A stretch of DNA of 20,903 nucleotides, taken from Candidatus Iainarchaeum sp. Its GTDB lineage: Archaea > Iainarchaeota > Iainarchaeia > Iainarchaeales > CSSED10-239. Every line of letters starts with the position of its first letter. The stretch's first letter is position 1. The notes beneath the pieces are model-generated. The model saw nothing but the letters and a program-made list of their open reading frames with translations. It did no database searches and had not been told where the DNA came from. Shown here piece after piece: positions 1,791 through 16,587 of the stretch. The stretch lies in the NCBI GenBank assembly GCA_003559395.1, contig PWLL01000111.1, positions 1 to 20,903 on the forward strand, given 5' to 3'. The position numbers and the translations under genes were made by a program.

Positions 1791-2219
1791 TTAATCACCA
1801 ATTACAAATTTTTTAGTTTGAATTTTTCCACAGTTAAAGCATCTTATTTGTGCTGTTCCGTTGTTTTTAAGTTCTTGTTTACATTGCGTACAATGTCCTT
1901 TGATAACTCCTAGGTTATCTTCTGCAGTCGTAAGCTTATATTCAAAAGGAGTAATTTCTATTATTTTTGCTTTAACAACATCTCCTTTTTTAAAAAAATC
2001 GTCAATATTTTTTACATAATCTCTAGATACGTTTCTTATAAACACGATTCCGCTATCTGCAGGTGATAAAACTTTGTTATCTTCTGCATAGTCTAAAGCA
2101 ATGATTATCATTTTCTCTTTAACAGCAATTATTTTTCCATAAACAACATCTCCGACATCTACGGGTTTTTTTTGTTTTATATTACTTAGAATTGTTTGTA
2201 TTTCGTTCAAATATCTCAC
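1791..2219 (-). CDS. csl4: Exosome complex RNA-binding protein Csl4 (S1 domain plus C-terminal zinc ribbon)
   Basis: It has an S1-like segment GDVVYGKIIAVKEKMIIIAL...GDVVKAKII, followed by LGVIKGHCTQCKQEL...IRCFNCGK (CxxC...CxxC zinc ribbon). The start is GTG at 2219 and there is no in-frame ATG near the N-terminus. It is shorter (142 aa) than typical Csl4. Confidence 0.6.
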   Translation of the reverse strand: MRYLNEIQTILSNIKQKKPVDVGDVVYGKIIAVKEKMIIIALDYAEDNKVLSPADSGIVFIRNVSRDYVKNIDDFFKKGDVVKAKIIEITPFEYKLTTAEDNLGVIKGHCTQCKQELKNNGTAQIRCFNCGKIQTKKFVIGD

Positions 2220-2391
2220 TTTTTTCTTTTTTTTCTAATATTTTTATTTTTTTTAAAAAACAGTTCTATTAGACAATATAATATATAGTAGAGAAACCTT
2301 TTTATAATGATTTTTGCTATTGTTTGTAATCAGTTCTTTTTATATTTGTTTTTGTTGTTAATATATATAGTACTTGGAGAATATATTAAAT

Positions 2392-3498
2392 ATGATTTTT
2401 GGATTTTTGTTTAGTACATCAAAGTTATACAACAAACCACATTTGTTATTTTTTGAAGCAATATTTTTAACAGTCGTGTCTGTTCTTTTATCTTTATTTA
2501 TTTTCCCAAACGATATTTTAAGTTTTGGAATTTTAATGTTTTTAACAGTGGGTGCGATTCCAATTTTCACAAAATTATTTTCATACAACTCATATCTTTC
2601 TAATTATCAAAAATCTTTTTTTAAAAGACATGCTTCATTATTAACGGCGCTAGGTTATTTTTTCTTAGGTGTTTTTGTTTCGTATGTTGTTTTTTTCTTT
2701 ATTTTTTCTTTAAATTATAATCTAGAAACATATTCTGTAGATGATCAAATAAACGTTACCACAGGAACAATTGATTTTTATCTAGAGATTTCTGAAATTA
2801 ACGAAAGAGATGTTGTTGTTGTCTTATATCAAAACAATCGAGCAATAAGGCAAGGAAGGTTTTATAGAGGCCAATATATTGATTTTAGAGGATATGATTT
2901 TAATAAGACTTTTTTAATAACAGAGATAAACGAAAAAGTAACTTTAAGTCAAGGAAGCGGTTTAAGAGAAAACATTTTTTTTGTACAATTAAAAGAAAGA
3001 GCAGGAATTGATAGTGTTAGAACAAGTTTAACAGGTCAAATAATTGGCACTCATAAAGGCACTAGTTTTAATGATGCTTTCTCTCTAATTTTTAAAAATA
3101 ATTTTAATGTTGTTGTTAAGGCTTTGTTAATGTCTTTTTTTTATGGAGCAGGTGCTTTGTTTTTGATATCTTGGAATGCTTCGGTTCTTGCAAGCGTTGT
3201 AGCTTTAGATATCTTTGTTTCTATGGCACCTTTAGTTTCTGAAGGTTTTAAAGGTTTTTTAATAGGTGTTTTCCATTCTCTTTATTTGTTTGTTGGTTAT
3301 TTGCCACATGGTCTTCCTGAGTTATTATCTTATTTTCTTGTAAGTTTTGCTGGTGCTTTATTAGCAAGAGATCTTTTTAAGGGCTTATTTGCAACAGAGT
3401 TTAAATGGCAGATAATAAAAGATTTAAGTCTTATTTTCTTTTTTGCTTTGTTGTTATTGTTTATTGGTGCACTTATTGAAGCCAGTTATTTTATTTAG
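2392..3498 (+). CDS. SpoIIM/DUF95-family integral membrane protein with a large soluble insertion
   Basis: The ORF track starts at TTG 2374 and the first ATG is at 2392. It has multiple hydrophobic helices, and the family signature ...YLPHGLPELLSYFLVSFAGALLA (PHGxxE) lies near the C-terminus. About 130 non-hydrophobic residues (about aa 115-240) are inserted between TM blocks. Confidence 0.55.
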   Translation: MIFGFLFSTSKLYNKPHLLFFEAIFLTVVSVLLSLFIFPNDILSFGILMFLTVGAIPIFTKLFSYNSYLSNYQKSFFKRHASLLTALGYFFLGVFVSYVVFFFIFSLNYNLETYSVDDQINVTTGTIDFYLEISEINERDVVVVLYQNNRAIRQGRFYRGQYIDFRGYDFNKTFLITEINEKVTLSQGSGLRENIFFVQLKERAGIDSVRTSLTGQIIGTHKGTSFNDAFSLIFKNNFNVVVKALLMSFFYGAGALFLISWNASVLASVVALDIFVSMAPLVSEGFKGFLIGVFHSLYLFVGYLPHGLPELLSYFLVSFAGALLARDLFKGLFATEFKWQIIKDLSLIFFFALLLLFIGALIEASYFI

Positions 3499-3502
3499 TT
3501 TT

Positions 3503-3574
3503 GCTTCTGTAGCTCAGTGGTAGAGCACAACACTCGTAATGTTGGGGTCGCGGGTTCGATTCTCGCCAGAAGCT
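3503..3574 (+). tRNA. tRNA-Thr (anticodon CGU)
   Basis: Hand-folded cloverleaf. The acceptor GCTTCTG pairs with CAGAAGC (3567-3573). The D-arm is GCTC-AGTGGTA-GAGC. The anticodon arm is CAACA-CTCGTAA-TGTTG, giving anticodon CGT. The T-arm is GCGGG-TTCGATT-CTCGC. There is no intron and no encoded CCA. It is the most GC-rich patch in the window. Confidence 0.9.
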
Positions 3575-3605
3575 TGCGTCTATTAAAAGAAACTAATTTA
3601 ATATA

Positions 3606-3632
3606 ATTGCGATTAGTAACCGCAATCTTTTT
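3606..3632 (+). terminator. Hairpin plus T-run downstream of the tRNA (ATTGCG-9 nt-CGCAAT-CTTTTT)
   Basis: A 6-bp perfect stem (3606-3611 with 3621-3626) is followed by five T (3628-3632). Oligo-T is the known archaeal termination signal. Confidence 0.3.
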
Positions 3633-3657
3633 AAATTAATTGTATCTTATATATAAT

Positions 3658-4812
3658 ATGGAAGAATTATTTTATGAGTTTAATCCTTGGTGGGAAGAAA
3701 AATATAATTTAATAGGAATTAAAAGAGATAAATATCTATCTTTTCTAAAAAATAATTTAAAAAATAAAGATATAATACTATTAACTGGACTTAGAAGAGT
3801 AGGAAAATCAACTTTAATTAAACAATTTATATTTTCTTTAATTAATGAATATGATATAACCCCTAGAAAAATATGTTATTTATCATTAGATGCTTTTTCT
3901 TTTAAAGAAAAGTCTATTTTTGATTTAGTAAGAGAATTTAGAAAAATAAATAATTTAAAAATAAATGATAAAATCTATTTATTTTTTGATGAAGTAACAT
4001 ATAAAGATTCATTTAAAGAAGAATTAAAAAATCTATATGACTTAGGTAATACAAAAGTTTTTGTAACATCCTCATCAGCAAGTAAATTAATAGATAAAAA
4101 AGCTTTACTTACAGGAAGAAGTAGAAGCTTAGAAGTAGAACCACTAGATTTTCAAGAATTTTTATTATTTAGAGACTATAATTTTAAAAAATCTGAAAAA
4201 TATCTTTTAGAAAAATATTTTGAAGAATATATGGAATATGGTGGAATGCCTGAATATGTTTTAATAAAAGATCCAGAATATATTATAAATTTAACAAGAA
4301 ATATTATATATAAAGATATAATTGCAAAATATAATTTAAGAGATAATAGTGCAGTAGAAGATTTATTTAGATTGTTATGTGAAAGAGTTGGAAAACCAAT
4401 GTCTTATAATAAATTAGCTAAAATATTAGATATAGGAAAAGATAGTGTTAAAAGTTATATTAGTTATTTTAAAGAATCCTATTTATTTTATATAATAGAA
4501 AAGGATGCTAAGAGTTTAAATGAAAGAATAGTTGATAATAAGAAAGTATATTGTGCTGATATTGGAATAAAAAATGTAGTTACTGGTTTTAGAGATAAAG
4601 GTTCAATTTATGAAAATTTAGTTTTTTTAAAAATTAAAAAAGAAAATCCAAGATTTATTAAAAAAGATGGAATTGAGATTGATTTTAAATATAAAGATAC
4701 AGTTATTGAAGCAAAATATAATATAGAAATTAAAGACAAACAAAAAGAATTATTTAATTCTTTAAAAGTTAAAAATAAAATTATTGCGAATGGTGTAGAT
4801 TTTTTTATTTAA
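3658..4812 (+). CDS. AAA+ ATPase of the AAA_14/DUF4143 type with a PD-(D/E)xK-like C-terminal domain
   Basis: The ORF track starts at TTG 3640 and the first ATG is at 3658 (MEELFYEFNPWW...). Walker A is LTGLRRVGKST and Walker B is IYLFFDEVTY. The C-terminus ...GSIYENLVFLKI...GIEIDFKYKDTVIEAKYN resembles the E-x-D-F...I-E-x-K nuclease-like motif of DUF4143 proteins. Confidence 0.8.
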   Translation: MEELFYEFNPWWEEKYNLIGIKRDKYLSFLKNNLKNKDIILLTGLRRVGKSTLIKQFIFSLINEYDITPRKICYLSLDAFSFKEKSIFDLVREFRKINNLKINDKIYLFFDEVTYKDSFKEELKNLYDLGNTKVFVTSSSASKLIDKKALLTGRSRSLEVEPLDFQEFLLFRDYNFKKSEKYLLEKYFEEYMEYGGMPEYVLIKDPEYIINLTRNIIYKDIIAKYNLRDNSAVEDLFRLLCERVGKPMSYNKLAKILDIGKDSVKSYISYFKESYLFYIIEKDAKSLNERIVDNKKVYCADIGIKNVVTGFRDKGSIYENLVFLKIKKENPRFIKKDGIEIDFKYKDTVIEAKYNIEIKDKQKELFNSLKVKNKIIANGVDFFI

Positions 4813-5017: not shown

Positions 5018-6346
5018 TTAGGTTTTATATTTCTTAATAATTTTTTTAATATCTTTTTCTTTTTCAAGCATTTGCTTTTTAGTTGTTGCTTCTAGATTAA
5101 GTCTTAGTAAGTTTTCTGTGTTGCTTGGTCTTAAGTTAAACCACCAGTCTTTAAACTCTATTTTGATGCCATCTTTTTTATTTATTTTCCCAAAAGAGTA
5201 TTTTTTTTCTATATTATCAAGAATCTTTTTAGGTTTTTTTACTTTAAAGTTTATTTCTTTTGTTTTATAATATTTTCTAAAAGGGTCTATTAGTTTTGAT
5301 AGTTTATGATCATCAAGTTCGTTCATTATTAAAAGACAAGCATATATAGGATTTTCACAATTATAAAACTCAGAAAAAAAATAATGCCCACTTACTTCTC
5401 CAGCAAAAACAATATCTGTTTTGTACATTTTGTTTTTTATAAAAGCATGTCCTATTTTATATTCTATTGGTTTTCCTTTATTTTTTAGAATTGTTTCTTT
5501 AACAATTTTACTACTTCTTAGATCATATAGTATTTTTGAGTTTGGTTTTTTATTAAGAACAATTTTTGTAAGAAAGGCAGTCATAATATCCATTGGAATT
5601 ATTCTGCCTTTTTCATCAACAAACCCAACTCTATCACAATCTCCATCAAAAGCAACACCAAAATCTGCTTTTTTTTCTCTAACTTTCTTTTGAAGATCTT
5701 TAAGGGTTTGTGTTTTTAGTGGGTTTGCTAGATGATTTGGATAGGTCTGGTCTATTTTTTTATAAAGATATGTTGTATCAACATTAAGTTTAGAAAAAAC
5801 TTTTGAAACAGTCATATATCCCATCCCGTTTCCAGTATCAACCACAACTTTTTTTTTAATATTAAATTTTGCATATCTTGTAAGATCTAAGATATATTTG
5901 TCAAATATTGATTTTTTATAGATTTTTCCTTTATTTTTCTGAATATGTTTTTTATTAAGATTTTTTTTAATATTTTTGATTTCTGAATATTTAAGAGGCT
6001 TTGCTTCTTTTTTAGTTATTTTAAATCCATTATATCTAGAGTCATTATGCGAGGCAGTAATCATTATACCTGCATCTGCTTTTAGATTATATACTGAATA
6101 ATTAAACAAAGGGCTTGTAGAATAACCAACATCTATAACATCACAACCCATCTCACAAATGCCTTTTGTTAAAGCCTTAAACAAAGAATCAGAGGAAGTT
6201 CTTTTATCTCTACCAACAACTATTTTTTTAGATTTTGTTAAAAAAACAACGGCTTTTGCTATTTTGTAGGTTATTTCTTCGTTAATTTCTTTAGGATATA
6301 TTCCTCTTATATCGTATTTGTGAAAAATATCGTTAGGTTCGTTCAT
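5018..6346 (-). CDS. Phosphomannomutase/phosphoglucomutase (alpha-D-phosphohexomutase superfamily)
   Basis: All four family motifs are present: the phosphoserine loop ITASHNDSRYNGFK, the metal loop FDGDCDRVGF, the sugar loop GEVSGHYFF and the phosphate loop RPSNTE. Man-1-P versus Glc-1-P specificity cannot be read from the sequence. Confidence 0.9.
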   Translation of the reverse strand: MNEPNDIFHKYDIRGIYPKEINEEITYKIAKAVVFLTKSKKIVVGRDKRTSSDSLFKALTKGICEMGCDVIDVGYSTSPLFNYSVYNLKADAGIMITASHNDSRYNGFKITKKEAKPLKYSEIKNIKKNLNKKHIQKNKGKIYKKSIFDKYILDLTRYAKFNIKKKVVVDTGNGMGYMTVSKVFSKLNVDTTYLYKKIDQTYPNHLANPLKTQTLKDLQKKVREKKADFGVAFDGDCDRVGFVDEKGRIIPMDIMTAFLTKIVLNKKPNSKILYDLRSSKIVKETILKNKGKPIEYKIGHAFIKNKMYKTDIVFAGEVSGHYFFSEFYNCENPIYACLLIMNELDDHKLSKLIDPFRKYYKTKEINFKVKKPKKILDNIEKKYSFGKINKKDGIKIEFKDWWFNLRPSNTENLLRLNLEATTKKQMLEKEKDIKKIIKKYKT

Positions 6347-6665
6347 ATTTATCTTCTATTCTTATTTCATCTTTTTCATTAAAATTTCCAAAAGATATTT
6401 CAATAACTCTTATTTTTTTTTCTTTTGCTATGATTCTATGTTTTTGTTCTTTTTTAATTGTAAGATATGTTTCTTTTTTTACTTTTTTTTTAATATCTTC
6501 TATTTGAACAACAGCATCATCTAAAAAATACCAGTTTTCCTCTCTTTTTTTGTGTTTTTGCAAGCTTAAGCTTTCGTGTGGGTTTATTTCTAATAGTTTT
6601 ACAGTACATTTTTTATTTAAGGCAAAAGTTTTAAACAAACCCCATGGTCTTTTAGTAGTTTCCAT
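6333..6665 (-). CDS. Small cupin resembling the C-terminal domain of type II mannose-6-phosphate isomerase
   Basis: It is 110 aa. RPWGLFKTF...KLLEINPHESLSLQKHKKREENWYFL matches the RPWG...K.i.V.PG..LSlQ.H..R.EhW pattern of ManC-type PMI cupins. It overlaps the PMM start by 14 nt. Confidence 0.6.
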   Translation of the reverse strand: METTKRPWGLFKTFALNKKCTVKLLEINPHESLSLQKHKKREENWYFLDDAVVQIEDIKKKVKKETYLTIKKEQKHRIIAKEKKIRVIEISFGNFNEKDEIRIEDKYERT

Positions 6666-6668
6666 TAT

Positions 6669-8585
6669 CTAACACCTACATTTTTTTAATTTTTCAAGAA
6701 GGTCTTTAGTTTTTATTTTTGCAACTCCTGTAACTTTGTCTGCTCCTCCATAGTAGATAAACAGTTCATCTTTTATTTCTACAGCTCCACAAGGAAAAAC
6801 AACGTTATTTACAATACCTTCTTTTTCATAATCTTTTTCTGGCCAAAAGATAGGTGAATCTGTTCTTCCAATAACTTTTGAAGGGTCTTTAATATCTAAT
6901 AAAAGTGCTCCGACTTTATATGTGTTATCATCACTTATGCCATGATATATGATTAGCCAACCTTCTTTTGTCTTTATTGGTGGCGTAGAAAGTCCAATTT
7001 TTTTAGAATCCCACCATCCTTTTCTAGGAGATACCCAGAATGTTTCTTCTAGATAGTTTTTGTTATTAAATTTTAGTGTTTTTCTAAGAGAAAGGTCCAT
7101 ACTATTTCCACGTCTATGAATAATATAGTATTTTCCATTAATTTTTTCTGGAAAGAAACTTGCATCTTTATCATCTGTTCCTGGAGGTGAGATCAATATT
7201 GGTTTTTCCCAATTCCATTTTTTTTTAAGAAAATCATCAACAAAGATTGAGGTTAGTGCAATTCTTGGAGGGTTTATTGAGTCATAGGCTGTATAAAACA
7301 TATATAGTTTGTTACCCATCTTAATAATCCTTGGATCTTCACAACCAGAATTTGCGTTTGGTTGTTTTTTGTTTTCAAATTCTTCTCTTGGAACATATAT
7401 TGGTTTTTTGGATCTATAGTCTATGTTTACACCATCTTTACTTGTACAATATCCAATAACAGACGTGTTGTCGTCACTCATAGCTCTATAAAGAATATGT
7501 ACTTTTTTATTTAGATAGATTGCACCAGGATTAAATGTTGCTTTTTTTTCCCAGTCTTTTTCAGATGGTTCAATTATGGGTTTTTCTTTTATTCTTTTAA
7601 ATTGTAAATTTTCTAATTTTTTAGGTTGTAGTATTTCATCTAACAAAGACTCTTCATCAATAAACGCTAAAGAAACAGTTGTGTCTGCAGAACCATAATA
7701 CAGATAGATTTCTTTTCCTTTTTTAAGTGCTCCAGAAGGAAAAATCACATTTTTTACTTCACCAGAAGTTTCATAAAACTCTTCAGGCACAAGAATAGGT
7801 CCTTTAGTTCTTCCAATAATCTTTGTAGGATCTTTAAGATCTAAAAGAGCTGCTTCAACACTAAATAAAGGATTTTTAAAATAATCTTTTATATATGAGT
7901 ATAATAATACCCATCCTTTTCTTGTTTTTATTGGTGCAGCACCAACTTCAACATGATCTTCGTCTTTTTTTTTAAGATCTAAAATATATTTGTCTATTTT
8001 TTCATACCATTTTTCCCAAAATTCTTCAGACCACATATCCTTTTCTTTATTAAATTTAGCAAGACATATTTTTGTTGGTGGATAGTCTGTGTGATAACTA
8101 AATGTTGCCCACATCTTATCTTTTATTTTTTCAGGAAATAAACTCATTGCTTTTGCGTTAAAAGGAGTTATTTGATGTTTTTCTTTAATTTCTTTAAGGT
8201 CTTTGCTTATTGCTAAACCAATTTTTATTGCGCTTGCTCTAAAAGGAAACTCAGATAGAGCTGTGTAAAAAATGTAGTACTTATTATTAAGCTTAGTGAT
8301 TCTCGGATCTTCACAACCATATTTGTCCCATTCTTTATTAGGCACAATAAATCTTTTATTTTGTTGAAAGTTTATCCCATCTTTACTTTTACATATGCCT
8401 ATGTTTGAAAGATCCATTTCTTTTTGTGCATAGGTTCTATAGTAAGGTATAGATTGCGCTCTATAGAGTAGATAAATATCATTATCTTTAACAACAGGAG
8501 ATGCGTTAAAGATAAGTTTTGATTGCCAAGCACAATGTCTATCTGGTCTTAGGATTGGATTTTTTTTGTATCTTTTTATTATCAT
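6669..8585 (-). CDS. Tandem two-module GH130-family protein (beta-mannoside phosphorylase/glycosidase family, formerly DUF377)
   Basis: It is 638 aa with two complete repeats of the GH130 pattern. Module 1 has KKNPILRPD...FNASPV...YGCEDPRITKL...YYGSADT. Module 2 has EKPIIEPSEKDWEKKATFNPGAIY...SGCEDPRIIKM...YYGGADK. Confidence 0.8.
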   Translation of the reverse strand: MIIKRYKKNPILRPDRHCAWQSKLIFNASPVVKDNDIYLLYRAQSIPYYRTYAQKEMDLSNIGICKSKDGINFQQNKRFIVPNKEWDKYGCEDPRITKLNNKYYIFYTALSEFPFRASAIKIGLAISKDLKEIKEKHQITPFNAKAMSLFPEKIKDKMWATFSYHTDYPPTKICLAKFNKEKDMWSEEFWEKWYEKIDKYILDLKKKDEDHVEVGAAPIKTRKGWVLLYSYIKDYFKNPLFSVEAALLDLKDPTKIIGRTKGPILVPEEFYETSGEVKNVIFPSGALKKGKEIYLYYGSADTTVSLAFIDEESLLDEILQPKKLENLQFKRIKEKPIIEPSEKDWEKKATFNPGAIYLNKKVHILYRAMSDDNTSVIGYCTSKDGVNIDYRSKKPIYVPREEFENKKQPNANSGCEDPRIIKMGNKLYMFYTAYDSINPPRIALTSIFVDDFLKKKWNWEKPILISPPGTDDKDASFFPEKINGKYYIIHRRGNSMDLSLRKTLKFNNKNYLEETFWVSPRKGWWDSKKIGLSTPPIKTKEGWLIIYHGISDDNTYKVGALLLDIKDPSKVIGRTDSPIFWPEKDYEKEGIVNNVVFPCGAVEIKDELFIYYGGADKVTGVAKIKTKDLLEKLKKCRC

Positions 8586-9702
8586 ATTTTCTCTTTTTTA
8601 ATTTTTTAGTTTTAAGTTTTATTTTTTCTCCTTTTTTAAGTTCTTCTAAAAATTTATTTATGTTTTTATAACCAACACAAACAAAGTTATCTGCACCACC
8701 ATAATAAACCATTAGTTTTTGGTTTTTTATTATTGCTCCCGTTGCATAAACAACTCCAGGTTTTGCACCGTTCATCTCATAATATTCGTTTGGTTCTATG
8801 ACTGGTTGTTTAGCTCTGTATAATATTTTTGTAGGTTCTTTAAGATCTAAAAGAAATGCTCCAACTTTATATTTTTGTGGTTCTCTTCTGTCTATTGCAT
8901 GATATAATAATAACCATCCATCTTTTGTTTTTAACGGTGGATTTCCTGCTCCTCTTATTAATGAGTCCCACCTTTTTTTATCTACTTTTCTATTTGAAAA
9001 ATTAACAAAGGTGCTATTAATATATTCTCCTTCTTTAAAATATAAAGAATCAATATATTCTATTTGTATTTTTGGAAATATGTTGTGTATGATTGCATAT
9101 TTTCCATTTATTTTTTCAGGAAATAATACCCAGTTTTTATTTATTTTTCCTGGTGGAGAAATTAGGGCTGGTTTTTTCCATTTCCATCTTTTTTTAAGAA
9201 AATCTTCTTTTTTTATAGATGACAATCCTACTCTTAGTCCTCCATCAAAAGCAGTGTATGTTAGATATATTCTGTCATCATCTTTTACTTTTGTTAAACG
9301 CGGGTCTTCGCATCCACCAAAGCTTCCACCAGAGGCATAAGAATAATATACAAAAGGTCCTGATTTTGCATTATGTTCAAAAACAGGATCTGGAAATCTT
9401 TGTTTTATTTTAAAACCATCTTTTGAGTTTGCGTATCCTAGTCTTGATAACCCGTCATTTCCAATTGCTCTATAAACAAAATGTACTTTATTATCTAAAC
9501 AAACAACACCAGGATTAAAGGTTTGCCAAGCCTCCCACCCATTTTCTGGATTTGGAGCAATGATTGGATTTTTTTCTATTTTTTCTAAAGTTAGGTTTGT
9601 GTTTTTTTCAGGTGTTGTGTCTTTTTCTTTTTTTTTATATGTTCTTTTTATATTTTTGTTAGGTTTCATTTTTGATTTTTTTTTAATATTTGTTGTTTTC
9701 AT
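8539..9702 (-). CDS. Single-module GH130-family protein with Lys-rich N- and C-terminal tails
   Basis: The ORF track starts at TTG 9717 and the first ATG is at 9702 (MKTTNIKKK...). The core has KNPIIAPNPENGWEAWQTFNPGVV...GGCEDPRLTKV...YYGGADN. The 3' end overlaps the next GH130 gene by 47 nt in a different frame. Confidence 0.8.
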   Translation of the reverse strand: MKTTNIKKKSKMKPNKNIKRTYKKKEKDTTPEKNTNLTLEKIEKNPIIAPNPENGWEAWQTFNPGVVCLDNKVHFVYRAIGNDGLSRLGYANSKDGFKIKQRFPDPVFEHNAKSGPFVYYSYASGGSFGGCEDPRLTKVKDDDRIYLTYTAFDGGLRVGLSSIKKEDFLKKRWKWKKPALISPPGKINKNWVLFPEKINGKYAIIHNIFPKIQIEYIDSLYFKEGEYINSTFVNFSNRKVDKKRWDSLIRGAGNPPLKTKDGWLLLYHAIDRREPQKYKVGAFLLDLKEPTKILYRAKQPVIEPNEYYEMNGAKPGVVYATGAIIKNQKLMVYYGGADNFVCVGYKNINKFLEELKKGEKIKLKTKKLKKRKYDNKKIQKKSNPKTR

Positions 9703-9722
9703 ATTATTACCATCCAAAATAT

Positions 9723-10268
9723 TTATTCTAGGTTTGCATGTTTTTTATTAATTTTGTTTTCATTTAGTTTTTTTTCAGACATTAATATAACAATTAATGC
9801 ATCTAAATATAGCAAGCAAGCTTGTTCAAACAAACTACCTAGTGGTTGTATTGATTTTTGGTTATTTTTGGTTTTATCTTTTGCATTTATTTCTATAATA
9901 TTAACCTCTTTTCTTTTTATTTTTTGTTGGTTTGTTATTAGTGTTGTTTTTGCTTTTTTCTGTTTTGCTTTTTTTATAATCATGTTTGTTATATCTGTTT
10001 TTCCTGAACCAGAGATTGCGATTAAAAGGTCTTTTTTAGTGATTGCAGGGGTTGTACAATCTCCAATAAAATAAGTAGAAACTCCGCTTTGCATTAATCT
10101 CATCGCAAAGCACTCAGCAACAAATCCACTTCTTCCAACACCTGTAACAAAGACGTTTTTGGAAGTTAATATATTTTCTAAAAGCTCTTTTGTTTTTTTT
10201 CTATCTACAATCTTTAAGGCTTTTTTATTTTCTTTTAGTATGTTTTCTAAAATTTCATTTATTTTCAT
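9723..10268 (-). CDS. hxlB: 6-phospho-3-hexuloisomerase (PHI, SIS domain)
   Basis: SIS motifs are VFVTGVGRSGFVAECFAMRL and LIAISGSGKT. Its length (181 aa) and its adjacency and overlap with an HPS gene fit PHI. Confidence 0.8.
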   Translation of the reverse strand: MKINEILENILKENKKALKIVDRKKTKELLENILTSKNVFVTGVGRSGFVAECFAMRLMQSGVSTYFIGDCTTPAITKKDLLIAISGSGKTDITNMIIKKAKQKKAKTTLITNQQKIKRKEVNIIEINAKDKTKNNQKSIQPLGSLFEQACLLYLDALIVILMSEKKLNENKINKKHANLE

Positions 10269-10890
10269 ATTTATTCATAATTTCTTTTATTTTTTTAACA
10301 ACTTGTTTAGGATTTTTTGCTTTTGTTACTGCTCCTCCAACAATTATTATGCCTGGTTTTATTTTACAAATATCTTCTATAGTGTCTATATTTATTCCAC
10401 CTGCCACTGCTAGTTTTTTAGAAGGCACAACAGAAGATATTTTTTTAAGTTCTTTATAAGGTGTGATTCCTTTATTTTGCATATCAATTCCAGAATGTAT
10501 TCCAATAAAGTCTGGTTTATATTTTATAATTTCTTTTGTTTTTTTAAGAACATTTTCACATGCAATCAAATCAACTAATATCTTTTTTTTATAATCTTTT
10601 GAAGCTTTTATACTTCCTTTTACAGTATCAATAAAAGAGCTTGCACAAACTGTAGAAAAATCAGCACCATGTTGGTAAGCAAGTTCTGCTTCAAAATAAC
10701 CTGTATCCATTGTTTTTAGATCTGCAAGAATTTCTTTTTTATGTTTTTTAAAATCTTTAATACTTTTTAGTCCATGAATCTTTATAAACGGTGTACCTAG
10801 TTCAATAATATCAATATATTTTTTTGTTTTTTCACATAAAGATAGTGCTTTTTTTTTATCTTCTATATCAAGTGCAAGTTGTAGTTTCAT
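10255..10890 (-). CDS. hxlA: 3-hexulose-6-phosphate synthase (HPS; OMP-decarboxylase superfamily)
   Basis: MKLQLALD..., ...LADLKTMDTG... and ...LAVAGGINIDTI... match HPS/KGPDC-type motifs. It is 211 aa. It overlaps phi by 14 nt and rpiB as ATGA (10887-10890). Confidence 0.8.
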   Translation of the reverse strand: MKLQLALDIEDKKKALSLCEKTKKYIDIIELGTPFIKIHGLKSIKDFKKHKKEILADLKTMDTGYFEAELAYQHGADFSTVCASSFIDTVKGSIKASKDYKKKILVDLIACENVLKKTKEIIKYKPDFIGIHSGIDMQNKGITPYKELKKISSVVPSKKLAVAGGINIDTIEDICKIKPGIIIVGGAVTKAKNPKQVVKKIKEIMNKYENK

Positions 10891-11312
10891 GTTTCATCTA
10901 ATTTTTCAAGTCTTCTTTTATATTTTTGTTTTTGAATAAATTTTGAATTTTTCCAAGTGTTTATTATTTCTATTGCTTTTTTTTTAGAAAGTGTAGATGG
11001 TAAAGCAATAACGTTTGCGTTTAGGTGTTCTTTAGAATGTTTTGCTGAATTTACATTCCAAGATAGAGAGCAAATAACCCCTTTATATCTGTTTGCTTGA
11101 ATAGTCATTCCTTGTCCTGTTCCACAAATCAAGATGCCTTTGTCTTTTTTAAGATTTTTCACTAATTTTTTAGCATAGTCATTAAAATCATCTTCAGGGT
11201 CGTAGTTTTTAGGTCCGACATCAACAAGCTTAAGATTATTTTTTTTAAAATGTTGTTTTATAGCTTCTTTTAGCTTATAGCCTCCATGATCACTTCCTAT
11301 TAAATATTTCAT
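10887..11312 (-). CDS. rpiB: Ribose-5-phosphate isomerase B (RpiB/LacAB family)
   Basis: IGSDHGGYKLKEAI..., GILICGTGQGMTIQANR and ...HLNANVIAL match RpiB signatures. It is 141 aa. Confidence 0.85.
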   Translation of the reverse strand: MKYLIGSDHGGYKLKEAIKQHFKKNNLKLVDVGPKNYDPEDDFNDYAKKLVKNLKKDKGILICGTGQGMTIQANRYKGVICSLSWNVNSAKHSKEHLNANVIALPSTLSKKKAIEIINTWKNSKFIQKQKYKRRLEKLDET

Positions 11313-12202
11313 TTTATATACCTTTTTATTTTTTTTACAATTTCATCACTAACATCAATAATATCGGCATCATTAACCAAAGTATTAGTAGAAACAATAA
11401 TCCCATGTTTTTTAAGTTTTTCTAAAGCATTTTCTGCAAATATTCCATGTATCCCGATCAGATATATCTTTTTAGGTTTATATTTTTTTAATTCTTTTAT
11501 ATTTTCTAGCATTGTGTTTCCTGTACTTATTATATCATCAATAATAATTAGTTCTTTATCTTTTGCATTTACTTTTGATGGAAGTTTTATTTTTACTTTT
11601 CTTGAACTTTCTCTTTTTTTAAGAGCAATAACTGGTTTTTTATTAAAAGCAGAGGCAACGTTAATTACCCATTGTAAACTTTCTTTATCTGGTCCAACAA
11701 AAAGAGGGTTTTTTATATTTTGTGATTTTAGATAATCTATTATTGGTTTGTCTAGAGAGATGTTAGTTCCATTTTCTAGAGCGTTTTTTATGTTTTTTAT
11801 TCTATGAAGGTGTGGGTCTATACAGAATATTTTATCACAAACACTAAACAACTGATTCATAATGTTTATGCCAACAGATTCTCCTTGTTTAAATCGTTTA
11901 TCACTTCTAAAATATGGAAAATAAGGAGCGATCAAGTATATTTTTTTTGCATTTAGGTTTTTGGCTGTATAGATCGCAAACAGTGTTTCTATAATTTTAT
12001 CATTTAAAGTTAAATTGTTTGTATTTTGAAAAGACTGAACTAAAAATATTTTCTTATTAGTTATTCTTTTATTAAAACGGATATCAATTTCTCCGTCAGG
12101 AAATTTGTTAAGAATTAGTTTTGTGTATGGTTGTTTTGCTTTTTTAGCAATTAATTTAGAAATTTTTTCGTTACCTGATAAAGCAACAATAATATTTATC
12201 AC
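11309..12202 (-). CDS. prs: Ribose-phosphate pyrophosphokinase (PRPP synthetase)
   Basis: It has FPDGEIDIRF near the N-terminus and the PRPP-binding loop ELIIIDDIISTGNTM. The start is GTG at 12202, and its stop overlaps the rpiB start as ATGA (11309-11312). Confidence 0.9.
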   Translation of the reverse strand: MINIIVALSGNEKISKLIAKKAKQPYTKLILNKFPDGEIDIRFNKRITNKKIFLVQSFQNTNNLTLNDKIIETLFAIYTAKNLNAKKIYLIAPYFPYFRSDKRFKQGESVGINIMNQLFSVCDKIFCIDPHLHRIKNIKNALENGTNISLDKPIIDYLKSQNIKNPLFVGPDKESLQWVINVASAFNKKPVIALKKRESSRKVKIKLPSKVNAKDKELIIIDDIISTGNTMLENIKELKKYKPKKIYLIGIHGIFAENALEKLKKHGIIVSTNTLVNDADIIDVSDEIVKKIKRYIK

Positions 12203-12249
12203 CTTTATGTATTTTGTCTAATATAATAGTATATATATTAATAAGGTAA

Positions 12250-12269
12250 ACAATATATAAATATATTGT
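12250..12269. repeat. Perfect palindrome ACAATATAT-AA-ATATATTGT in the divergent prs/abiEi intergenic region
   Basis: It has 9-bp perfect arms and a 2-nt spacer, 48 nt upstream of the prs start. It is AT-only apart from one C/G pair per arm, so the chance expectation is not negligible. Confidence 0.35.
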
Positions 12270-12405
12270 AAGTCTGTTTATTTTTAAAAAATATCTGACA
12301 AAATTATTTTATTGTATTTTTACAATCTTTTGTTTTTTAGAGAAGAATCCTCGTTTTTGCTTGTTTCATATTTTACGTGATTTTTGTATTTTTTGAAACG
12401 ATAGG

Positions 12406-12413
12406 TTTATATA
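12406..12413 (+). promoter_or_regulatory. Candidate TATA box (TTTATATA) for the abiEi-abiEii transcript
   Basis: Its centre lies about 26 nt upstream of the ATG at 12436. That is the canonical archaeal TATA-to-TSS distance and would imply a leaderless mRNA. A purine-rich stretch (GAAACGATAGG) sits just upstream. AT-rich background makes such matches common. Confidence 0.3.
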
Positions 12414-12435
12414 TGACAACATACGAAAGATATTT

Positions 12436-13065
12436 ATGGATAGGCACATTTTGTTTATTTGTAATAAATTAGACACTATCAACGGACAATTTATTCATAA
12501 GTCTATGTTGTACAACATCGTAAAAGAGTTTTTGCCAAGTAATAAGTCTTTAAAAAACACAATCAGAAATTTAAAAAATAATAACAAAATAAAATATTTG
12601 TTTCAAGATTATTTTTATATTCTATCTTCTGATGAACAAATAAAAAAATACTATAGATATTCTCCAAAAGAAATGGTGTTTGTTATATTAAATAAATTAA
12701 AAATAAAATGGTATTTAGGACTATATTCTGCATTACAGATACACAACTTAAGATCTCAAGAAGATCTATTTCATCAAGTGCCTAAAACAACACTAATAAT
12801 TAATTCTAAATTTTCAAGAAAAATAAATATTCTAAACGAACCAATAATATTTAAAAAACAAAAACAAATAAGTTGTGGAATAAATAAATCAACTACAAAC
12901 AACAGAATTACTTTTTATTATTCAGATTTAGAAAGAACACATATCGATTATATTTTTTATTTTAAAAAATCAAACCTAAATCCAAAAAAATTAGATCTCA
13001 CTAAATTAAAAAAACATCTTAAATCTTTTCCTGTAAAAATATACAATATGGTTATAAATGAATAA
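12436..13065 (+). CDS. abiEi: AbiEi-like antitoxin/transcriptional regulator (type IV TA system)
   Basis: It is 209 aa and lies immediately upstream of, and overlaps by 8 nt (ATGAATAA), an AbiEii-type gene. ...WYLGLYSALQIHNLRSQEDLFHQVP... and ...YYSDLERTHIDYIF resemble the AbiEi pattern (GL.SAL..HGL..Q.P ... SD.ERTL.D). Primary similarity is weak, so the call is mostly contextual. Confidence 0.55.
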   Translation: MDRHILFICNKLDTINGQFIHKSMLYNIVKEFLPSNKSLKNTIRNLKNNNKIKYLFQDYFYILSSDEQIKKYYRYSPKEMVFVILNKLKIKWYLGLYSALQIHNLRSQEDLFHQVPKTTLIINSKFSRKINILNEPIIFKKQKQISCGINKSTTNNRITFYYSDLERTHIDYIFYFKKSNLNPKKLDLTKLKKHLKSFPVKIYNMVINE

Positions 13066-14020
13066 AAAACAAATAATTCAGTACGTTAATTTTGTAAAAA
13101 AGAAAAAAACAAATCTTTCAAATGAAATTATTGAAAAAGATTATTATTTGTCTTTATTTTTAACAAAAGCACAAATGTTACAAAAAGAAAATAAACTACA
13201 AGAATATAGTAATTTAATATTTAAAGGAGGCACTCTTTTAACTAAAAAATATTTAGACTATCATAGATTTAGTGAAGATTTAGATTTTACACATATAAAA
13301 GCTAACGAAATAAATTGTTTAAAAACAAATAAATCAATAGATAAAAATATTAAAAAAACACAATATTCCTTAATAGAAGATATAAAAAAAATAAGCGATG
13401 CTTGTAATTTTGTGTTTGAAAAAGACACTTCTAAAGATAATCAGTTTATAAAGGTTAGAAATCAAAGAATTGTTTGTGTGTTTTATATTTATTATAAATC
13501 TATATATGATATCAAAACTAAAGAACTATCAAAATTAAAAATTGAAGTTAATTTTGTAGAAAATATAAAATATAAACCAATAAAAGTAGAAATAAATAAT
13601 TTAGTAGATATTTTACAACTAAATAATGATGATTGGTTAGAGCTTAAATCATTAGACTTTGACTTAGAAAAAATAAAAATAAATGTTTATGATTTAAAAG
13701 AAATCATTTTAGAAAAATATAGAGCCATTCTTACAAGAAGAACAATGCAAAAAAGAGATTTTTTTGATTTGTTTTTTATAAATAAGAAAACAAATGTTTT
13801 TAAGATTGATGACTCTTTGATATTAGATAAAATAAAGTTTTCTTTTAGATTTTTTAAAAAAACAAGAGATTTTTATAAATACAATATGTCAACTATAAAA
13901 AATAACAATTTAGATATTAAAGAAGATGTGTTTTATTTGTCTTTGATAGATTATGATCAAAAGAAATATGATGTTTTTAAAAAGAAATTGTTTGAAAAGA
14001 TTCTTAAATTTAAAATGTGA
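13058..14020 (+). CDS. abiEii: AbiEii/AbiGii-family nucleotidyltransferase toxin (DUF1814)
   Basis: Family motifs are present: FKGGTLLTKKYL (GG[ST]), HRFSEDLDFT (R.S.D.DF catalytic acidic pair) and EKYRAILTRRTMQKRDFFDLFF (K..A...R...RD.yDl). It is 320 aa. Confidence 0.8.
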   Translation: MNKKQIIQYVNFVKKKKTNLSNEIIEKDYYLSLFLTKAQMLQKENKLQEYSNLIFKGGTLLTKKYLDYHRFSEDLDFTHIKANEINCLKTNKSIDKNIKKTQYSLIEDIKKISDACNFVFEKDTSKDNQFIKVRNQRIVCVFYIYYKSIYDIKTKELSKLKIEVNFVENIKYKPIKVEINNLVDILQLNNDDWLELKSLDFDLEKIKINVYDLKEIILEKYRAILTRRTMQKRDFFDLFFINKKTNVFKIDDSLILDKIKFSFRFFKKTRDFYKYNMSTIKNNNLDIKEDVFYLSLIDYDQKKYDVFKKKLFEKILKFKM

Positions 14021-14034
14021 TGTGATTTTTATGA

Positions 14035-15072
14035 ATGCAAAATATGTTTTTGAGGTGCTTATTAGTGAAATATGATTATTTAATAAAATTTCCATTTTCA
14101 AAAAAAGCTAAAGAACATTTAGATACACAAAATATAAGTATTTTAGATATTGATGAATCTATTTTAAAGAAAGCAACTACTTTTTTATTAAAAACAATTT
14201 CACAAGAAAAAGAGGATAAAGAAAAAGACTGGAAATCATATATGCATGTTGATGATAAAACAATTGCAAATGTTTTTGTTAAAATATATCCTGCATCAAA
14301 AATATTGTTGTCTTTAGTTGATTCAACGCCACTTAATCAAGCTTTTGCACACTATTATATGGAACAACTTTTGTTTTTCTTAAGAAATTCTAAAAAAGAC
14401 TATGATTTTGAAGATATTATTACAGATCTCTTAGATGGAAAAAGATATGAGATAAAAGAAGAAAAATATGTCTTGCCTTTGATTGATGTTCTTTCTTTTG
14501 ATATTGGTTCTGAATTTAAGTTACAGTATCAAAATCTCAAAGACGGAAACATCTTTTTTGAACAAGCTGATTTTTTTGTGTTTCTTGGTTTAATTTTAAA
14601 GAAAAAGATTCTTAAAACTATTTCTACACCCACTCAACTAAAAGATACAAAGCTACCACAAGAGTTTTATGATTACTCAAAATATGTTCAAGAAAAATTG
14701 CTAGTTACTGCAACCTATACAAAAACAAAATATCAAACAAACAACAAAGAAGAATTCCCTCCTTGTTTTAAAAAACTTTTTGAAGAAATTACTTTTGGAC
14801 ATAAGTTGTCTCACGTAGGTAACTTTCATCTTGCTGTTTTTTTGTATAATGTGGGGTTTACAAAAGAACAAATGATAGACGTGTTTAAGAATGCAAACAA
14901 TTTTGATCAAAAGATTGCATCCTATCAAATCTCTAAAATTGCAGAAAAAGGATACTCTGTTGCAAACTGTCAAACCTTAGCATCAAATGGCTTGTGTGTA
15001 AAAGATTGTAAAGTCACACACCCTTTGCAACTTTTAAAAAAACCTAAAAAAGAAAAACATGAACGAAAATAA
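14035..15072 (+). CDS. priL: DNA primase large subunit PriL (Fe-S cluster type)
   Basis: EFPPCFKKLF (the PPC motif) plus the C-terminal cluster NCQTLASNGLCVKDC provides the four Cys expected for the PriL 4Fe-4S domain. The ...KFPFSKKAKEHL N-terminus is typical. The true start may be GTG 14065, which lies 7 nt after GAGGTG (14052-14057). Confidence 0.8.
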   Translation: MQNMFLRCLLVKYDYLIKFPFSKKAKEHLDTQNISILDIDESILKKATTFLLKTISQEKEDKEKDWKSYMHVDDKTIANVFVKIYPASKILLSLVDSTPLNQAFAHYYMEQLLFFLRNSKKDYDFEDIITDLLDGKRYEIKEEKYVLPLIDVLSFDIGSEFKLQYQNLKDGNIFFEQADFFVFLGLILKKKILKTISTPTQLKDTKLPQEFYDYSKYVQEKLLVTATYTKTKYQTNNKEEFPPCFKKLFEEITFGHKLSHVGNFHLAVFLYNVGFTKEQMIDVFKNANNFDQKIASYQISKIAEKGYSVANCQTLASNGLCVKDCKVTHPLQLLKKPKKEKHERK

Positions 15073-16579
15073 AAAAGTTTTGTTGATTGTCTTAGATGGC
15101 ATGGGAATAAATAAAAACTATAAAGGAAATGCAGTGTATAAAGCAAATATGCCTTTTTATGACTCTCTTAAAAAAAATAACCTATATCTTACTTTAGGAG
15201 CTTCAGAAGAATCTGTGGGCTTGCCAAAAAAACAACTAGGTTCTTCAGAGGTTGGTCATTCAATAATGGGTGCTGGAAAAGTATTGTTGTCAGAAATAAA
15301 TAAGATAAATAACGCTATTTTTGATGGTTCTTTTTATGAACATTCTTTGTTAAACAAAAAATTATCTAAGATAAAAAACCAAGCCTTACATCTGGTTGGA
15401 CTTTTAAGCGATGGTGGAGTTCATTCACATATTGACCATCTTTTTGCTTTGTTAGATGTTATTAAAAGATATTCAAATATTAAAAAAGTTTTTGTGCACG
15501 TTATAACAGATGGTAGAGACGTTTCGCCTACAAGTTCTGAAAAATATATTAAGAAGTTAGAAAAAAAACTAAATGAACAAAATCTAGGACGCGTCGCATC
15601 CGTTTCAGGAAGATACTATGGAATGGATCGAGACAACAACTGGGATAGACAAAAGAAAGTATATGACATGCTTGTTTCTGGTAAAGCAAACGTTGATGAC
15701 GACGTTTATGGATTTATAAAAAAATCATATGCAAAAGGGATAACTGATGAATTTTTAGAACCTACTTTGTTTTTAAAAGAAGGGACTATAAAAGAAAAAG
15801 ATACGATTCTTTTTTTCAATTTCAGAAGTGATAGAGCTAGAGAGTTTACAAGAATGTTTGTTGATAGGTCTTTTAATAATTTTTATAGAAAAAAAATAAA
15901 AGTTGATTTTATTACTTTAACAGAATATGATCGTAAGATAAAAGATGCAGTTGTACTTTATCCTCCTCAAAAACAACAACCAGGGCTAGGACAAATCATT
16001 TCTAAAAACAAACAAAAACAACTAAGAATTGCAGAAACAGAAAAATTTGCACATGTGACTTATTTTTTTAATATAGGTCAAGAATATCCAAACAAAAACG
16101 AAGATAGAATACTCGTTCCTTCACCAAGCACAACAACATATGATAAAAAACCAGAAATGTCTGCAAAGATAATAACTAAACAATTGATAGATTCTTTAGA
16201 TAAAGACTATTTATTTACTTTAGTAAACTTTGCAAATCCTGACATGGTTGGGCATACAGGAAACATAGACGCAACAGTTAAAGCTTTAGAAACCTTAGAT
16301 GCTTGTTTAAAAGTTATTTTTTCAAAAATTGATTTAGAAAAAACAGATGTGATAATTACTTCTGATCACGGAAATTGTGATGAGATGTTGTCAAAAGACC
16401 AAAAGATAATCACTTCTCATAGCTTAAATAAAGTTCCTTTTATTTTAATTTCAAAAAAAGATTATAAAAAAGCAAACGTAAAAGAAGCAAGTCTTGCAAA
16501 TATTGCCCCCACTCTCTTAAAGCTTCTTTCTTTTGAAATTCCAGAATATATGGCTGAACCATTGATTAAAGAAAAATAG
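15059..16579 (+). CDS. gpmI: 2,3-bisphosphoglycerate-independent phosphoglycerate mutase, bacterial GpmI type
   Basis: Motifs are LLIVLDGMG, GSSEVGHSIMGAG (catalytic Ser), SDGGVHSH, VHVITDGRDV, NFANPDMVGHTG and ITSDHGN. It is 506 aa, the GpmI length rather than the roughly 400-aa archaeal ApgM. It overlaps the priL stop by 14 nt. Confidence 0.92.
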   Translation: MNENKKVLLIVLDGMGINKNYKGNAVYKANMPFYDSLKKNNLYLTLGASEESVGLPKKQLGSSEVGHSIMGAGKVLLSEINKINNAIFDGSFYEHSLLNKKLSKIKNQALHLVGLLSDGGVHSHIDHLFALLDVIKRYSNIKKVFVHVITDGRDVSPTSSEKYIKKLEKKLNEQNLGRVASVSGRYYGMDRDNNWDRQKKVYDMLVSGKANVDDDVYGFIKKSYAKGITDEFLEPTLFLKEGTIKEKDTILFFNFRSDRAREFTRMFVDRSFNNFYRKKIKVDFITLTEYDRKIKDAVVLYPPQKQQPGLGQIISKNKQKQLRIAETEKFAHVTYFFNIGQEYPNKNEDRILVPSPSTTTYDKKPEMSAKIITKQLIDSLDKDYLFTLVNFANPDMVGHTGNIDATVKALETLDACLKVIFSKIDLEKTDVIITSDHGNCDEMLSKDQKIITSHSLNKVPFILISKKDYKKANVKEASLANIAPTLLKLLSFEIPEYMAEPLIKEK

Positions 16580-16587
16580 ATTTGTTT

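Follow-up and report, generated by a model that had tools for sequence, protein, structure and literature searches.

An eight-gene block of DPANN archaea and its predicted modular route from sugars to phosphoribosyl pyrophosphate

Members of the DPANN archaea and of the bacterial Candidate Phyla Radiation (CPR) are believed to obtain their nucleotides and sugars from hosts, and the source of their ribose-phosphate backbone is poorly mapped. A 20,903-nucleotide stretch of DNA from Candidatus Iainarchaeum sp. (contig PWLL01000111.1 of assembly GCA_003559395.1; hereafter the window) poses this question in concrete form: eight minus-strand genes at 5018–12202 bring predicted enzymes of mannoside breakdown together with those leading to 5-phosphoribosyl 1-pyrophosphate (PRPP). 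Do these genes form one pathway, and in which direction would it run? We read the block as a modular sugar-to-PRPP operon of a DPANN clade, in which a fixed back end is served by exchangeable front ends, and put the probability of this reading at about 0.6. The feature that exceeds chance is the conservation of order, with the same eight genes recurring in at least five diverged lineages between entirely different flanks.

The genes run in the order prs, rpiB, hps, phi, GH130, GH130x2, a PF01050 cupin and a mutase of the PGM/PMM family (GH130, glycoside hydrolase family 130; PGM, phosphoglucomutase; PMM, phosphomannomutase). An earlier reading of this DNA, made from its letters alone (the sequence-only reading), had placed the eight genes at these positions, and the mechanical list of open reading frames (ORFs) together with direct reading of the sequence reproduces them to the base, overlaps and gaps included; all eight family calls likewise hold in Pfam and NCBIfam profile annotation. 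The window has a GC content of ~26% and carries archaeal markers, namely PCNA, RpoL, a Csl4-like protein, primase large subunit, a pelota/eRF1-like protein, ribosomal protein S17e and a class III signal peptide. Within the block, the prs/rpiB (11309–11312) and rpiB/hps (10887–10890) junctions are ATGA overlaps, both read directly from the sequence, followed by a 14-nt overlap of hps and phi (10255–10268). Pentose back end and sugar front end meet at a seam between phi and the first GH130 gene; counted from a TTG start at 9717 it spans 5 nt (9718–9722), but translation starting instead from the ATG at 9702 would widen it to 20 nt (9703–9722). Beyond it lie a 47-nt overlap of the two GH130 genes (8539–8585, also read directly), a 3-nt gap between GH130x2 and the cupin gene (6666–6668) and a 14-nt overlap of cupin and mutase genes (6333–6346).

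Such packing is the norm in this genome. The plus-strand genes at 14035–17622, encoding primase large subunit, a bacterial-type cofactor-independent phosphoglycerate mutase (iPGM_N, 254 bits) and the pelota/eRF1-like protein, provide an internal control for tight spacing: the first two overlap by 14 nt and the second and third lie 2 nt apart. Since tight spacing is common between functionally unrelated genes, a gap-free block is by itself neither evidence of functional coupling nor proof of a functional unit. Operon status is predicted from the shared strand, the spacing and the conserved order taken together, and from these we infer co-transcription. The AT-rich intergenic region of 233 nt upstream of prs (12203–12435), common to a divergent AbiE-like gene pair, is probably the promoter region of the block. 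The only match of an Rfam scan was a tRNA-Thr, with no riboswitch or any other RNA close to the block, 12203–12435 included; promoter and terminator consensus scans stayed at background, the sigma-70 consensus (44 sites against 42.6 expected) being bacterial and uninformative for an archaeon.

The back end is assigned with the help of curated NCBIfam cut-offs, which are passed by all four of its proteins. The block begins with prs (11309–12202), a GTG-started gene for a ribose-phosphate diphosphokinase (PRPP synthase) of 297 aa with Pribosyltran_N and Pribosyltran domains (TIGR01251, 196.9 bits against a cut-off of 113), the product of which is 43–70% identical across all block-carrying relatives. 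Ribose-5-phosphate isomerase B, a protein of 141 aa encoded by rpiB (10887–11312), matches PF02502 with 131 bits; it passes NF004051 marginally (136.5 against 135) and TIGR00689 clearly (133.7 against 88.3). The third gene, hps (hxlA; 10255–10890), encodes a 3-hexulose-6-phosphate synthase of 211 aa (TIGR03128 RuMP_HxlA, 218.6 bits against 200), with DPANN proteins named HPS as its closest homologues, and phi (hxlB; 9723–10268) encodes a 6-phospho-3-hexuloisomerase of 181 aa (TIGR03127 RuMP_HxlB, 187.3 bits against 160). Profile scans of the window proteins found no gene of the oxidative or non-oxidative pentose phosphate pathway in the 21-kb window. The ribulose monophosphate (RuMP) pathway run in reverse is an established archaeal pentose route, and Orita et al. 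are said to have described it in 2006 as the pentose route of Thermococcus kodakarensis. Operating in this sense, the back end would convert fructose-6-phosphate (F6P) by way of hexulose-6-phosphate into ribulose-5-phosphate and formaldehyde; the ribulose-5-phosphate would then be isomerised to ribose-5-phosphate and pyrophosphorylated to PRPP.

Carriers of the block were found through HPS-anchored homologue look-ups and a metagenome scan with an HPS alignment. The nearest HPS relatives (~70% identity) all have the identical eight-gene order, so that the conservation anticipated by the sequence-only reading is seen in at least five diverged DPANN lineages. More precisely, wherever HPS identity is at least 69% and the contig is long enough, the GH130-GH130x2-cupin-PMM half follows (loci L014–17, L019–20, L025, L026, L028 and L030). 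We group these as L014/15/16/26, L017, L019/20, L025, L028 and L030, plus the window; L024 represents the window's own organism, on a 6.4-kb contig that spans five genes and ends inside the first GH130 gene. Between the eight-gene lineages, GH130x2 is 58–73% and the mutase 52–62% identical. The flanks are unrelated from carrier to carrier, comprising SMC/SerRS/NIF3 genes in one case, GrpE-DnaK-DnaJ-RtcB in another, or tRNA synthetases and DUF2238.

More distant relatives carry the back end with a different front end. At 50–64% HPS identity, prs-rpiB-hps-phi is followed by phosphoglucose isomerase (PGI), of either SIS or cupin type, and a ROK kinase (L021/L032, L022, L023 and L031; the L032 contig ends after PGI), and below ~46% neither prs nor rpiB accompanies hps and phi. 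It is at the phi–GH130 seam that PGI and ROK kinase replace the GH130 half, and both alternative front ends finish at F6P. Because the ROK kinase and Prs are effectively irreversible, the direction of the glucose version is fixed, from hexose through F6P, ribulose-5-phosphate and ribose-5-phosphate to PRPP. The mannoside half takes the position of PGI and ROK kinase and likewise leads to F6P, which provides independent comparative support for flux to PRPP and for HPS and PHI acting in reverse. The route from a hexose-level sugar to PRPP that had been proposed from the window alone is therefore supported by its sister lineages, in which PGI and ROK kinase are swapped in behind the same four genes. 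Two of these loci additionally encode a 377-aa protein between the cupin-type PGI and the ROK kinase (L022, 11578–12711; L031, 4469–5596), 63% identical between the loci, with a borderline match to the glucoamylase-like family GH15 (21.7 bits, cut-off 22). Searched by sequence against solved structures, the L022 protein gave no match; the pair may represent a third, glucoside-cleaving front end.

What, then, does the sugar half of the window do? Its two GH130 genes encode three modules, which we call A (the single-module protein; 8539–9717, 392 aa from the TTG start), B and C (the N- and C-terminal halves of the 638-aa GH130x2 protein; residues 1–322 at 7620–8585 and residues 323–638 at 6669–7619). 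Both proteins belong to PF04041, A with 150.8 bits and the double protein with 355.9 bits in two stretches, against a cut-off of 26. The nearest solved relatives of all three modules are Teth514_1788 and Teth514_1789, which are β-1,2-oligomannan and β-1,2-mannobiose phosphorylases; the bit scores against Teth514_1788 (9fj8) are 218 for module C, 156 for A and 151 for B. The residues diagnostic of GH130 enzymes are, in UhgbMP, the proton donor D104, the phosphate pair R168/H231 and, in the +1 subsite, R59, Y103 (Glu in β-1,2 and β-1,3 enzymes), R150 (Lys in β-1,2 enzymes) and D304 (Li et al. 2020, PMC7660257). We located the corresponding columns in an alignment of 299 module sequences, drawn from 119 homologues and the fetched loci, using Table 2 of that paper and alignment to Tm1225, Teth514_1788 and Teth514_1789. 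The donor Asp is present in all three window modules and in every orthologue (A, 21/21; B, 137/137; C, 138/138), and the Glu/Lys pair of β-1,2 enzymes occurs, with the equivalents of R59 and D304, in 100% of the sequences of all three modules. The linkage is accordingly predicted to be β-1,2, which narrows the unspecified β-mannoside of the sequence-only reading and departs from the generic or β-1,4 substrate implied by the name of the Pfam family.

The modules differ at the phosphate pocket. Module C carries the canonical β-1,2-mannoside phosphorylase signature, with the phosphate-binding Arg and His each kept in 137/138 orthologues and a third basic residue, Lys or Arg, in 135/138 (Lys in the window). 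In module A of the window an Asn takes the place of the Arg; 19/21 orthologues have Ser there, 20/21 retain the His, and a conserved Arg lies one column past the third basic position. Both members of the pair are gone from module B (n = 137 orthologues), the Arg to Thr in 111 and Ser in 25, and the His to Ser in 132 and Ala in 5; at the positions of Lys, Lys, Gly and Gly in C, module B has invariant Asp194, His195, Glu197 and Glu225 (Teth514_1788 numbering). It is by such an exchange of basic residues for carboxylates that GH130 phosphorylases become hydrolases (PMC4599007). The proposal of three GH130 phosphorylase modules thus stands for C, judged by the residues of PMC7660257, and fails for A, which is without the Arg, and for B, which is without both residues; a missing phosphate site, named in advance as what would overturn that proposal, is found in A and B and not in C. 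Module B looks hydrolase-like and module A looks like an enzyme with an altered phosphate or donor site, and the two probably deal with chains of other lengths, with caps or with the reaction in the direction of synthesis. An initial best stretch (residues 16–312) had placed B closest to the BT3780 mannosidase family, an assignment we rejected when B alone scored higher on the phosphorylase model NF052550 (199 bits) than on the BT3780 model NF058598 (101 bits, cut-off 550); by descent, module B is, on these scores, a derived member of the phosphorylase-like group.

Nor do A and B behave as decaying copies. Identity between archaea and CPR bacteria is 45–57% and similar for A, B and C, so the three modules are similarly constrained. 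Moreover, single-chain A-B-C fusions exist with their modules ordered as in the window's two genes (P0002, 1110 aa; P0033, 996 aa; P0113, 971 aa), which argues that the modules may act together. The P0002 fusion has an extra N-terminal segment of ~120 aa. In the window, module A bears Lys-rich low-complexity tails at both ends (8539–8640 and 9600–9717, minus strand), and it is the tail at the C-terminus that gives rise to the 47-nt overlap with the gene behind it, an overlap which runs through poly-A tracts. The long overlap is unusual, the A/B-C junction in relatives being mostly –4 to +14 nt, with a possible overlap of ~44 nt in L025. We considered whether it conceals a frameshift within an A-B-C fusion and rejected this: both frames are intact, the 638-aa protein aligns from residue 1 and the relatives' genes are separate.

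The remaining two genes would carry mannose-1-phosphate to F6P. The cupin (6333–6665, 110 aa) is a homologue of the mannose-6-phosphate isomerase (PMI) domain of type II enzymes that combine this activity with GDP-mannose pyrophosphorylase (GMP/PMI), matching PF01050 with 53.5 bits against 23.6. It stands alone: against the bifunctional model TIGR01479 only positions 359–467 are matched, with 52.8 bits against a cut-off of 373, and the N-terminal nucleotidyltransferase is missing. Among 14 orthologues the motifs RPWG, SLQxHxxRxExW, a downstream His and ExxxGxFxExD...DxYxR are invariant, as in the isomerase domain of bifunctional GMP/PMI enzymes, and the invariant ligand residues are Gln36, His38, Glu43 and the downstream His. 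We take this Gln/His/Glu/His set to correspond to the metal ligands of PMI, as in the Candida enzyme. The grouping with PMI-type cupins expected from the sequence-only reading is upheld by the PF01050 score and these motifs; a sequence search against solved structures gave a best hit of only E = 0.11. The cupin is linked to GH130 genes in both CPR and DPANN loci. The last gene of the block (5018–6346) encodes an α-D-phosphohexomutase of the PGM/PMM family, 442 aa in length, with PF02878, PF02879, PF02880 and PF00408 all above cut-off and catalytic loops intact in the translation (TASHND, DGDCDR, GEVSGH and RPSNTE); its 14-nt overlap with the cupin gene is conserved in all eight-gene lineages, which hints, by context, at activity on mannose phosphates. 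A HAD-IIB protein follows the cupin in some other loci, and in the CPR locus L005 a HAD protein with a match to eukaryotic-type PMM (PF03332, 51.5 bits) lies beside it, which suggests that different mutases fill the step between mannose-1-phosphate and mannose-6-phosphate in different lineages by non-orthologous replacement.

How far does the GH130 set extend beyond the eight-gene block? An exact look-up of the 638-aa protein matched no contig; scanning a genome collection with it returned 8 loci, all bacterial (7 from CPR, and L008 from an Acidobacterium with a distant GH130), and archaeal contexts came from homologue look-ups; together there are 13 loci anchored on GH130x2, from CPR bacteria, one Acidobacterium and three DPANN groups. 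A single GH130 gene lies directly upstream of the double one in 11 of the 13, and a cupin nearby in 7. The exceptions to the arrangement are L012, with the A gene 6.5 kb off on the same contig, L013, with no A in the stretch covered, and L008, with one distant GH130 only. The A-B-C trio, usually with the cupin, is ~50–64% identical across DPANN archaea and CPR bacteria from very different habitats; the window's B-C protein itself is 61% identical to matches labelled Jorgensenbacteria, Levybacteria and Elusimicrobia and 62–64% to those of other DPANN archaea. Such near-equal identities imply inter-domain transfer of the GH130 module among ultra-small prokaryotes.

Several of these loci have features of their own. 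In L012 (Nanoarchaeota; 1856–3469), an A-type GH130 of 537 aa with an N-terminal extension of ~200 aa lies by genes for pyruvate:ferredoxin oxidoreductase and acetyl-CoA synthetase, and its distance from the B-C gene means that A is not always adjacent to B-C. In L009 (Pacearchaeota; 7868–21000), a ROK kinase stands immediately upstream of the A and B-C genes, and GAPDH, PGK, PfkB, DeoC, cupin PGI and TIM follow within 8 kb, so that the mannoside genes of this contig seem to be linked with glycolysis and not with pentose synthesis. Four CPR loci encode a CTP_transf_like nucleotidyltransferase of 162–176 aa immediately before the cupin/GH130 genes, on their upstream side (L002, 8291–8812; L003, 6679–7167; L004, 3015–3545; L006, 6608–7099). 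Its best match is heptose-1-phosphate adenylyltransferase (RfaE domain II), at 68–88 bits and thus below the cut-off of 181, and it could provide the GH130 proteins with a nucleotide sugar or have a housekeeping role unconnected with them; these loci, all four, come from related Paceibacteria-type genomes and hence are not independent.

Taken together, the front end in the window would supply F6P from a cytoplasmic β-1,2-linked mannoside. Module C would phosphorolyse this to α-mannose-1-phosphate, the mutase would convert the product into mannose-6-phosphate and the PMI-type cupin would isomerise it to F6P, with A and B as conserved partners that would not be canonical phosphorylases. No signal peptide was seen by inspection in any protein of the block. 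Gene content and order, their conservation, the residue patterns and the front-end swap are observed, whereas the identity of the substrate, the sense in which the reversible sugar steps run and what A and B do are inferred.

A number of observations weigh against the sugar-to-PRPP operon. An intact phosphate site is lacking in modules A and B, hence in two of three, and no single module reaches the equivalog cut-off of NF052550, set at 450 (A, 195.5; B, 199.3; C, 273.8 bits); the 464 bits of the whole 638-aa protein are the sum of its two modules. The mutase falls below both relevant cut-offs with near-equal scores, 369.6 against 439 for Arch_GlmM and 367.5 against 618 for PMM/PGM. All reactions of the sugar half are reversible, and the block contains no transporter, mannose kinase or formaldehyde-detoxifying gene. 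The gap from phi to the A gene is the widest of the block in every relative, at +34 to +66 nt, and could hold an internal promoter. Finally, no PMM, PHI, HPS, RpiB or Prs lies within 10 kb in the 13 other GH130x2-anchored loci, so that the linkage is specific to the clade.

These observations can be accommodated in other ways. The two halves may be independent and merely adjacent in a compact genome, with the GH130-cupin-PMM set feeding glycolysis or glycans and the pentose unit drawing on the general F6P pool. Unrelated genes are indeed tightly spaced throughout the window, the GH130 module occurs without pentose genes in the 13 other loci and near glycolytic genes in L009, and no gap within the relatives' blocks is wider than the seam. 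Yet the junction is kept in at least five lineages at 52–73% protein identity while everything outside the block is reshuffled, and the slot behind phi in sister lineages holds another F6P-producing pair, which is hard to explain without selection; we therefore regard independence as unlikely. More improbable by far is that the RuMP enzymes run forwards, fixing or detoxifying formaldehyde by condensing it with ribulose-5-phosphate to F6P, and that the sugar half builds mannosides by reverse phosphorolysis. Although HPS, PHI and all sugar-half enzymes are reversible, and GH130 phosphorylases make oligomannans from mannose-1-phosphate in vitro (PMC4264767), Prs heads the block and would draw ribose-5-phosphate away from ribulose-5-phosphate. 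In addition, the ATP-dependent ROK kinase and PGI of the sister operons push hexose into F6P, and no methylotrophy or formaldehyde-generating context is found in the window.

A further explanation touches the sugar half alone. It could operate as a reversible intracellular reserve cycle of β-1,2-mannan, comparable to Leishmania mannogen, and so as a hexose buffer coupled to PRPP supply; A would build the polymer, possibly from a nucleotide sugar or mannose-1-phosphate, B would trim it and C would phosphorolyse it. The lack of signal peptides and of a transporter in the block fits a cytoplasmic polymer, and the ~50–64% identity of the trio across CPR and DPANN genomes of unrelated habitats suits a housekeeping role better than a diet-specific one. 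The nearest solved relatives, Teth514_1788 and Uhgb_MS, are dual phosphorylases and GDP-mannose transferases (PMC12814180). Synthase and phosphorylase paralogues of GT108 differ at the phosphate-pocket Arg, exactly the residue that module A has lost, but this Arg is an insufficient predictor of transferase versus phosphorylase activity (PMC10913872). The small nucleotidyltransferase just upstream of the GH130 genes in four CPR loci would also suit such a cycle, but it scores 68–88 against 181 and its closest family acts on a β-anomeric sugar phosphate. Furthermore, neither GDP-mannose pyrophosphorylase nor a priming enzyme is present in the window or its eight-gene relatives, and β-1,2-mannan from CPR or DPANN is unreported in the open-access literature searched. 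We consider the cycle, with these roles, a tentative possibility that is clearly the less probable account. More speculative still is its extension, in which the A-B-C set and the PMI cupin constitute a new β-1,2-mannan reserve system of CPR and DPANN, a prokaryotic counterpart of mannogen in ultra-small symbionts that is hard-wired to PRPP in this DPANN clade, where mannan held in store would be drawn upon directly for PRPP.

Beyond the block, the window shows possible signs of insertion on both sides. Between the upstream region of the block and the primase gene, the lowest-GC part of the window (0.19–0.21) holds a plus-strand gene pair (12436–14020), in which a 209-aa ORF without a Pfam match overlaps by 8 nt the gene for a 320-aa AbiEii nucleotidyltransferase toxin (PF08843, 88.8 bits). 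The pair looks like an AbiE-type toxin–antitoxin insertion and is absent from the relatives' loci. Just downstream of the last gene of the block, a tRNA-Thr(CGU) gene (3503–3574, plus strand) is followed by a gene for an AAA_14/DUF4143 ATPase of 390 aa, in a region of low GC and strong GC skew; 3503–4812 may be an element integrated at the tRNA gene.

If the sugar-to-PRPP operon is read correctly, the block offers a concrete and testable route from sugar to PRPP within one cluster, with a fixed F6P-to-PRPP back end and mannoside or glucose front ends. It also places RuMP genes in DPANN lineages where a published survey found none: that survey reported HxlA and HxlB in Altiarchaeota only (PMC8407392), whereas the loci described here are labelled Nanoarchaeota, 'Diapherotrites', Pacearchaeota or plain 'archaeon', and so lie outside Altiarchaeota. 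The differentiated GH130 set is one of few carbohydrate-active systems common to both radiations at high identity, and A, B and C form a natural series for the loss of the phosphate site in glycoside phosphorylases, of interest to the enzymology of GH130 and GT108. A full-text search restricted to open-access papers found no description of the gene cluster, and GH130 in CPR is represented by a single passing mention of two intracellular enzymes in one genome (PMC7143001).

Each part of the block has counterparts among known systems. The reverse RuMP pathway of the Thermococcus kodakarensis type, found in archaea without an oxidative pentose phosphate pathway, uses the same two enzymes in the same proposed role of obtaining ribulose-5-phosphate from F6P; here, however, hps and phi are separate rather than fused, and are embedded between rpiB/prs and a sugar-supplying module. 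Bacterial mannoside loci, such as the mannan loci of Bacteroides and Ruminococcus, combine a GH130 phosphorylase with phosphomannomutase and mannose-6-phosphate isomerase. They share the logic of mannoside to mannose-1-phosphate, mannose-6-phosphate and F6P, by which the first ATP is saved, but have β-1,4 targets, transporters, extracellular glycanases and glycolysis as the sink, and we know of none joined to hps-phi-rpiB-prs.

The GH130 modules themselves invite comparison with three groups. In Leishmania, the reserve mannogen is made and broken down by paralogues of the related family GT108 with differing phosphate pockets (PMC10913872). The seven enzymes MTP1–7, which comprise strict transferases and phosphorylases, resemble the present set as five-bladed-propeller paralogues differentiated at that pocket, acting on a cytoplasmic β-1,2-mannoside that exchanges carbon with mannose-1-phosphate, mannose-6-phosphate and F6P; the parallel is an analogy only, between different CAZy families, with a polymer that is hypothetical here and a locus without a GDP-mannose-forming enzyme. 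The β-1,2-mannosidases of GH130_3 (BT3780 and BACOVA_03624) appear to be paralleled by module B in the loss of basic residues, the gain of carboxylates and the retention of the β-1,2 Lys (PMC4599007), and the Asp and Glu residues of B are possible equivalents of Glu227 and Glu268 of BT3780; B, however, is without a signal peptide and is fused to a phosphorylase. Closest are the adjacent Thermoanaerobacter sp. X-514 phosphorylases Teth514_1788 and Teth514_1789 (GH130_6; PDB 9FJ8 and 7FIP), the nearest characterised enzymes having weak GDP-mannose transferase activity as well (PMC12814180). With them all three modules share the Asp donor and the Glu/Lys pair, and module C the Arg/His/Lys pocket as well, and in both cases GH130 paralogues stand side by side; identity is moderate, however, the pocket replacements of A and B are absent from both Thermoanaerobacter enzymes, and B and C are fused, sometimes as A-B-C. 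Set beside these systems, the enzyme families of the block are all known; new, to judge from the open-access literature, are their conserved linkage, the exchange of front ends, and GH130 modules that are both fused and differentiated in three ways.

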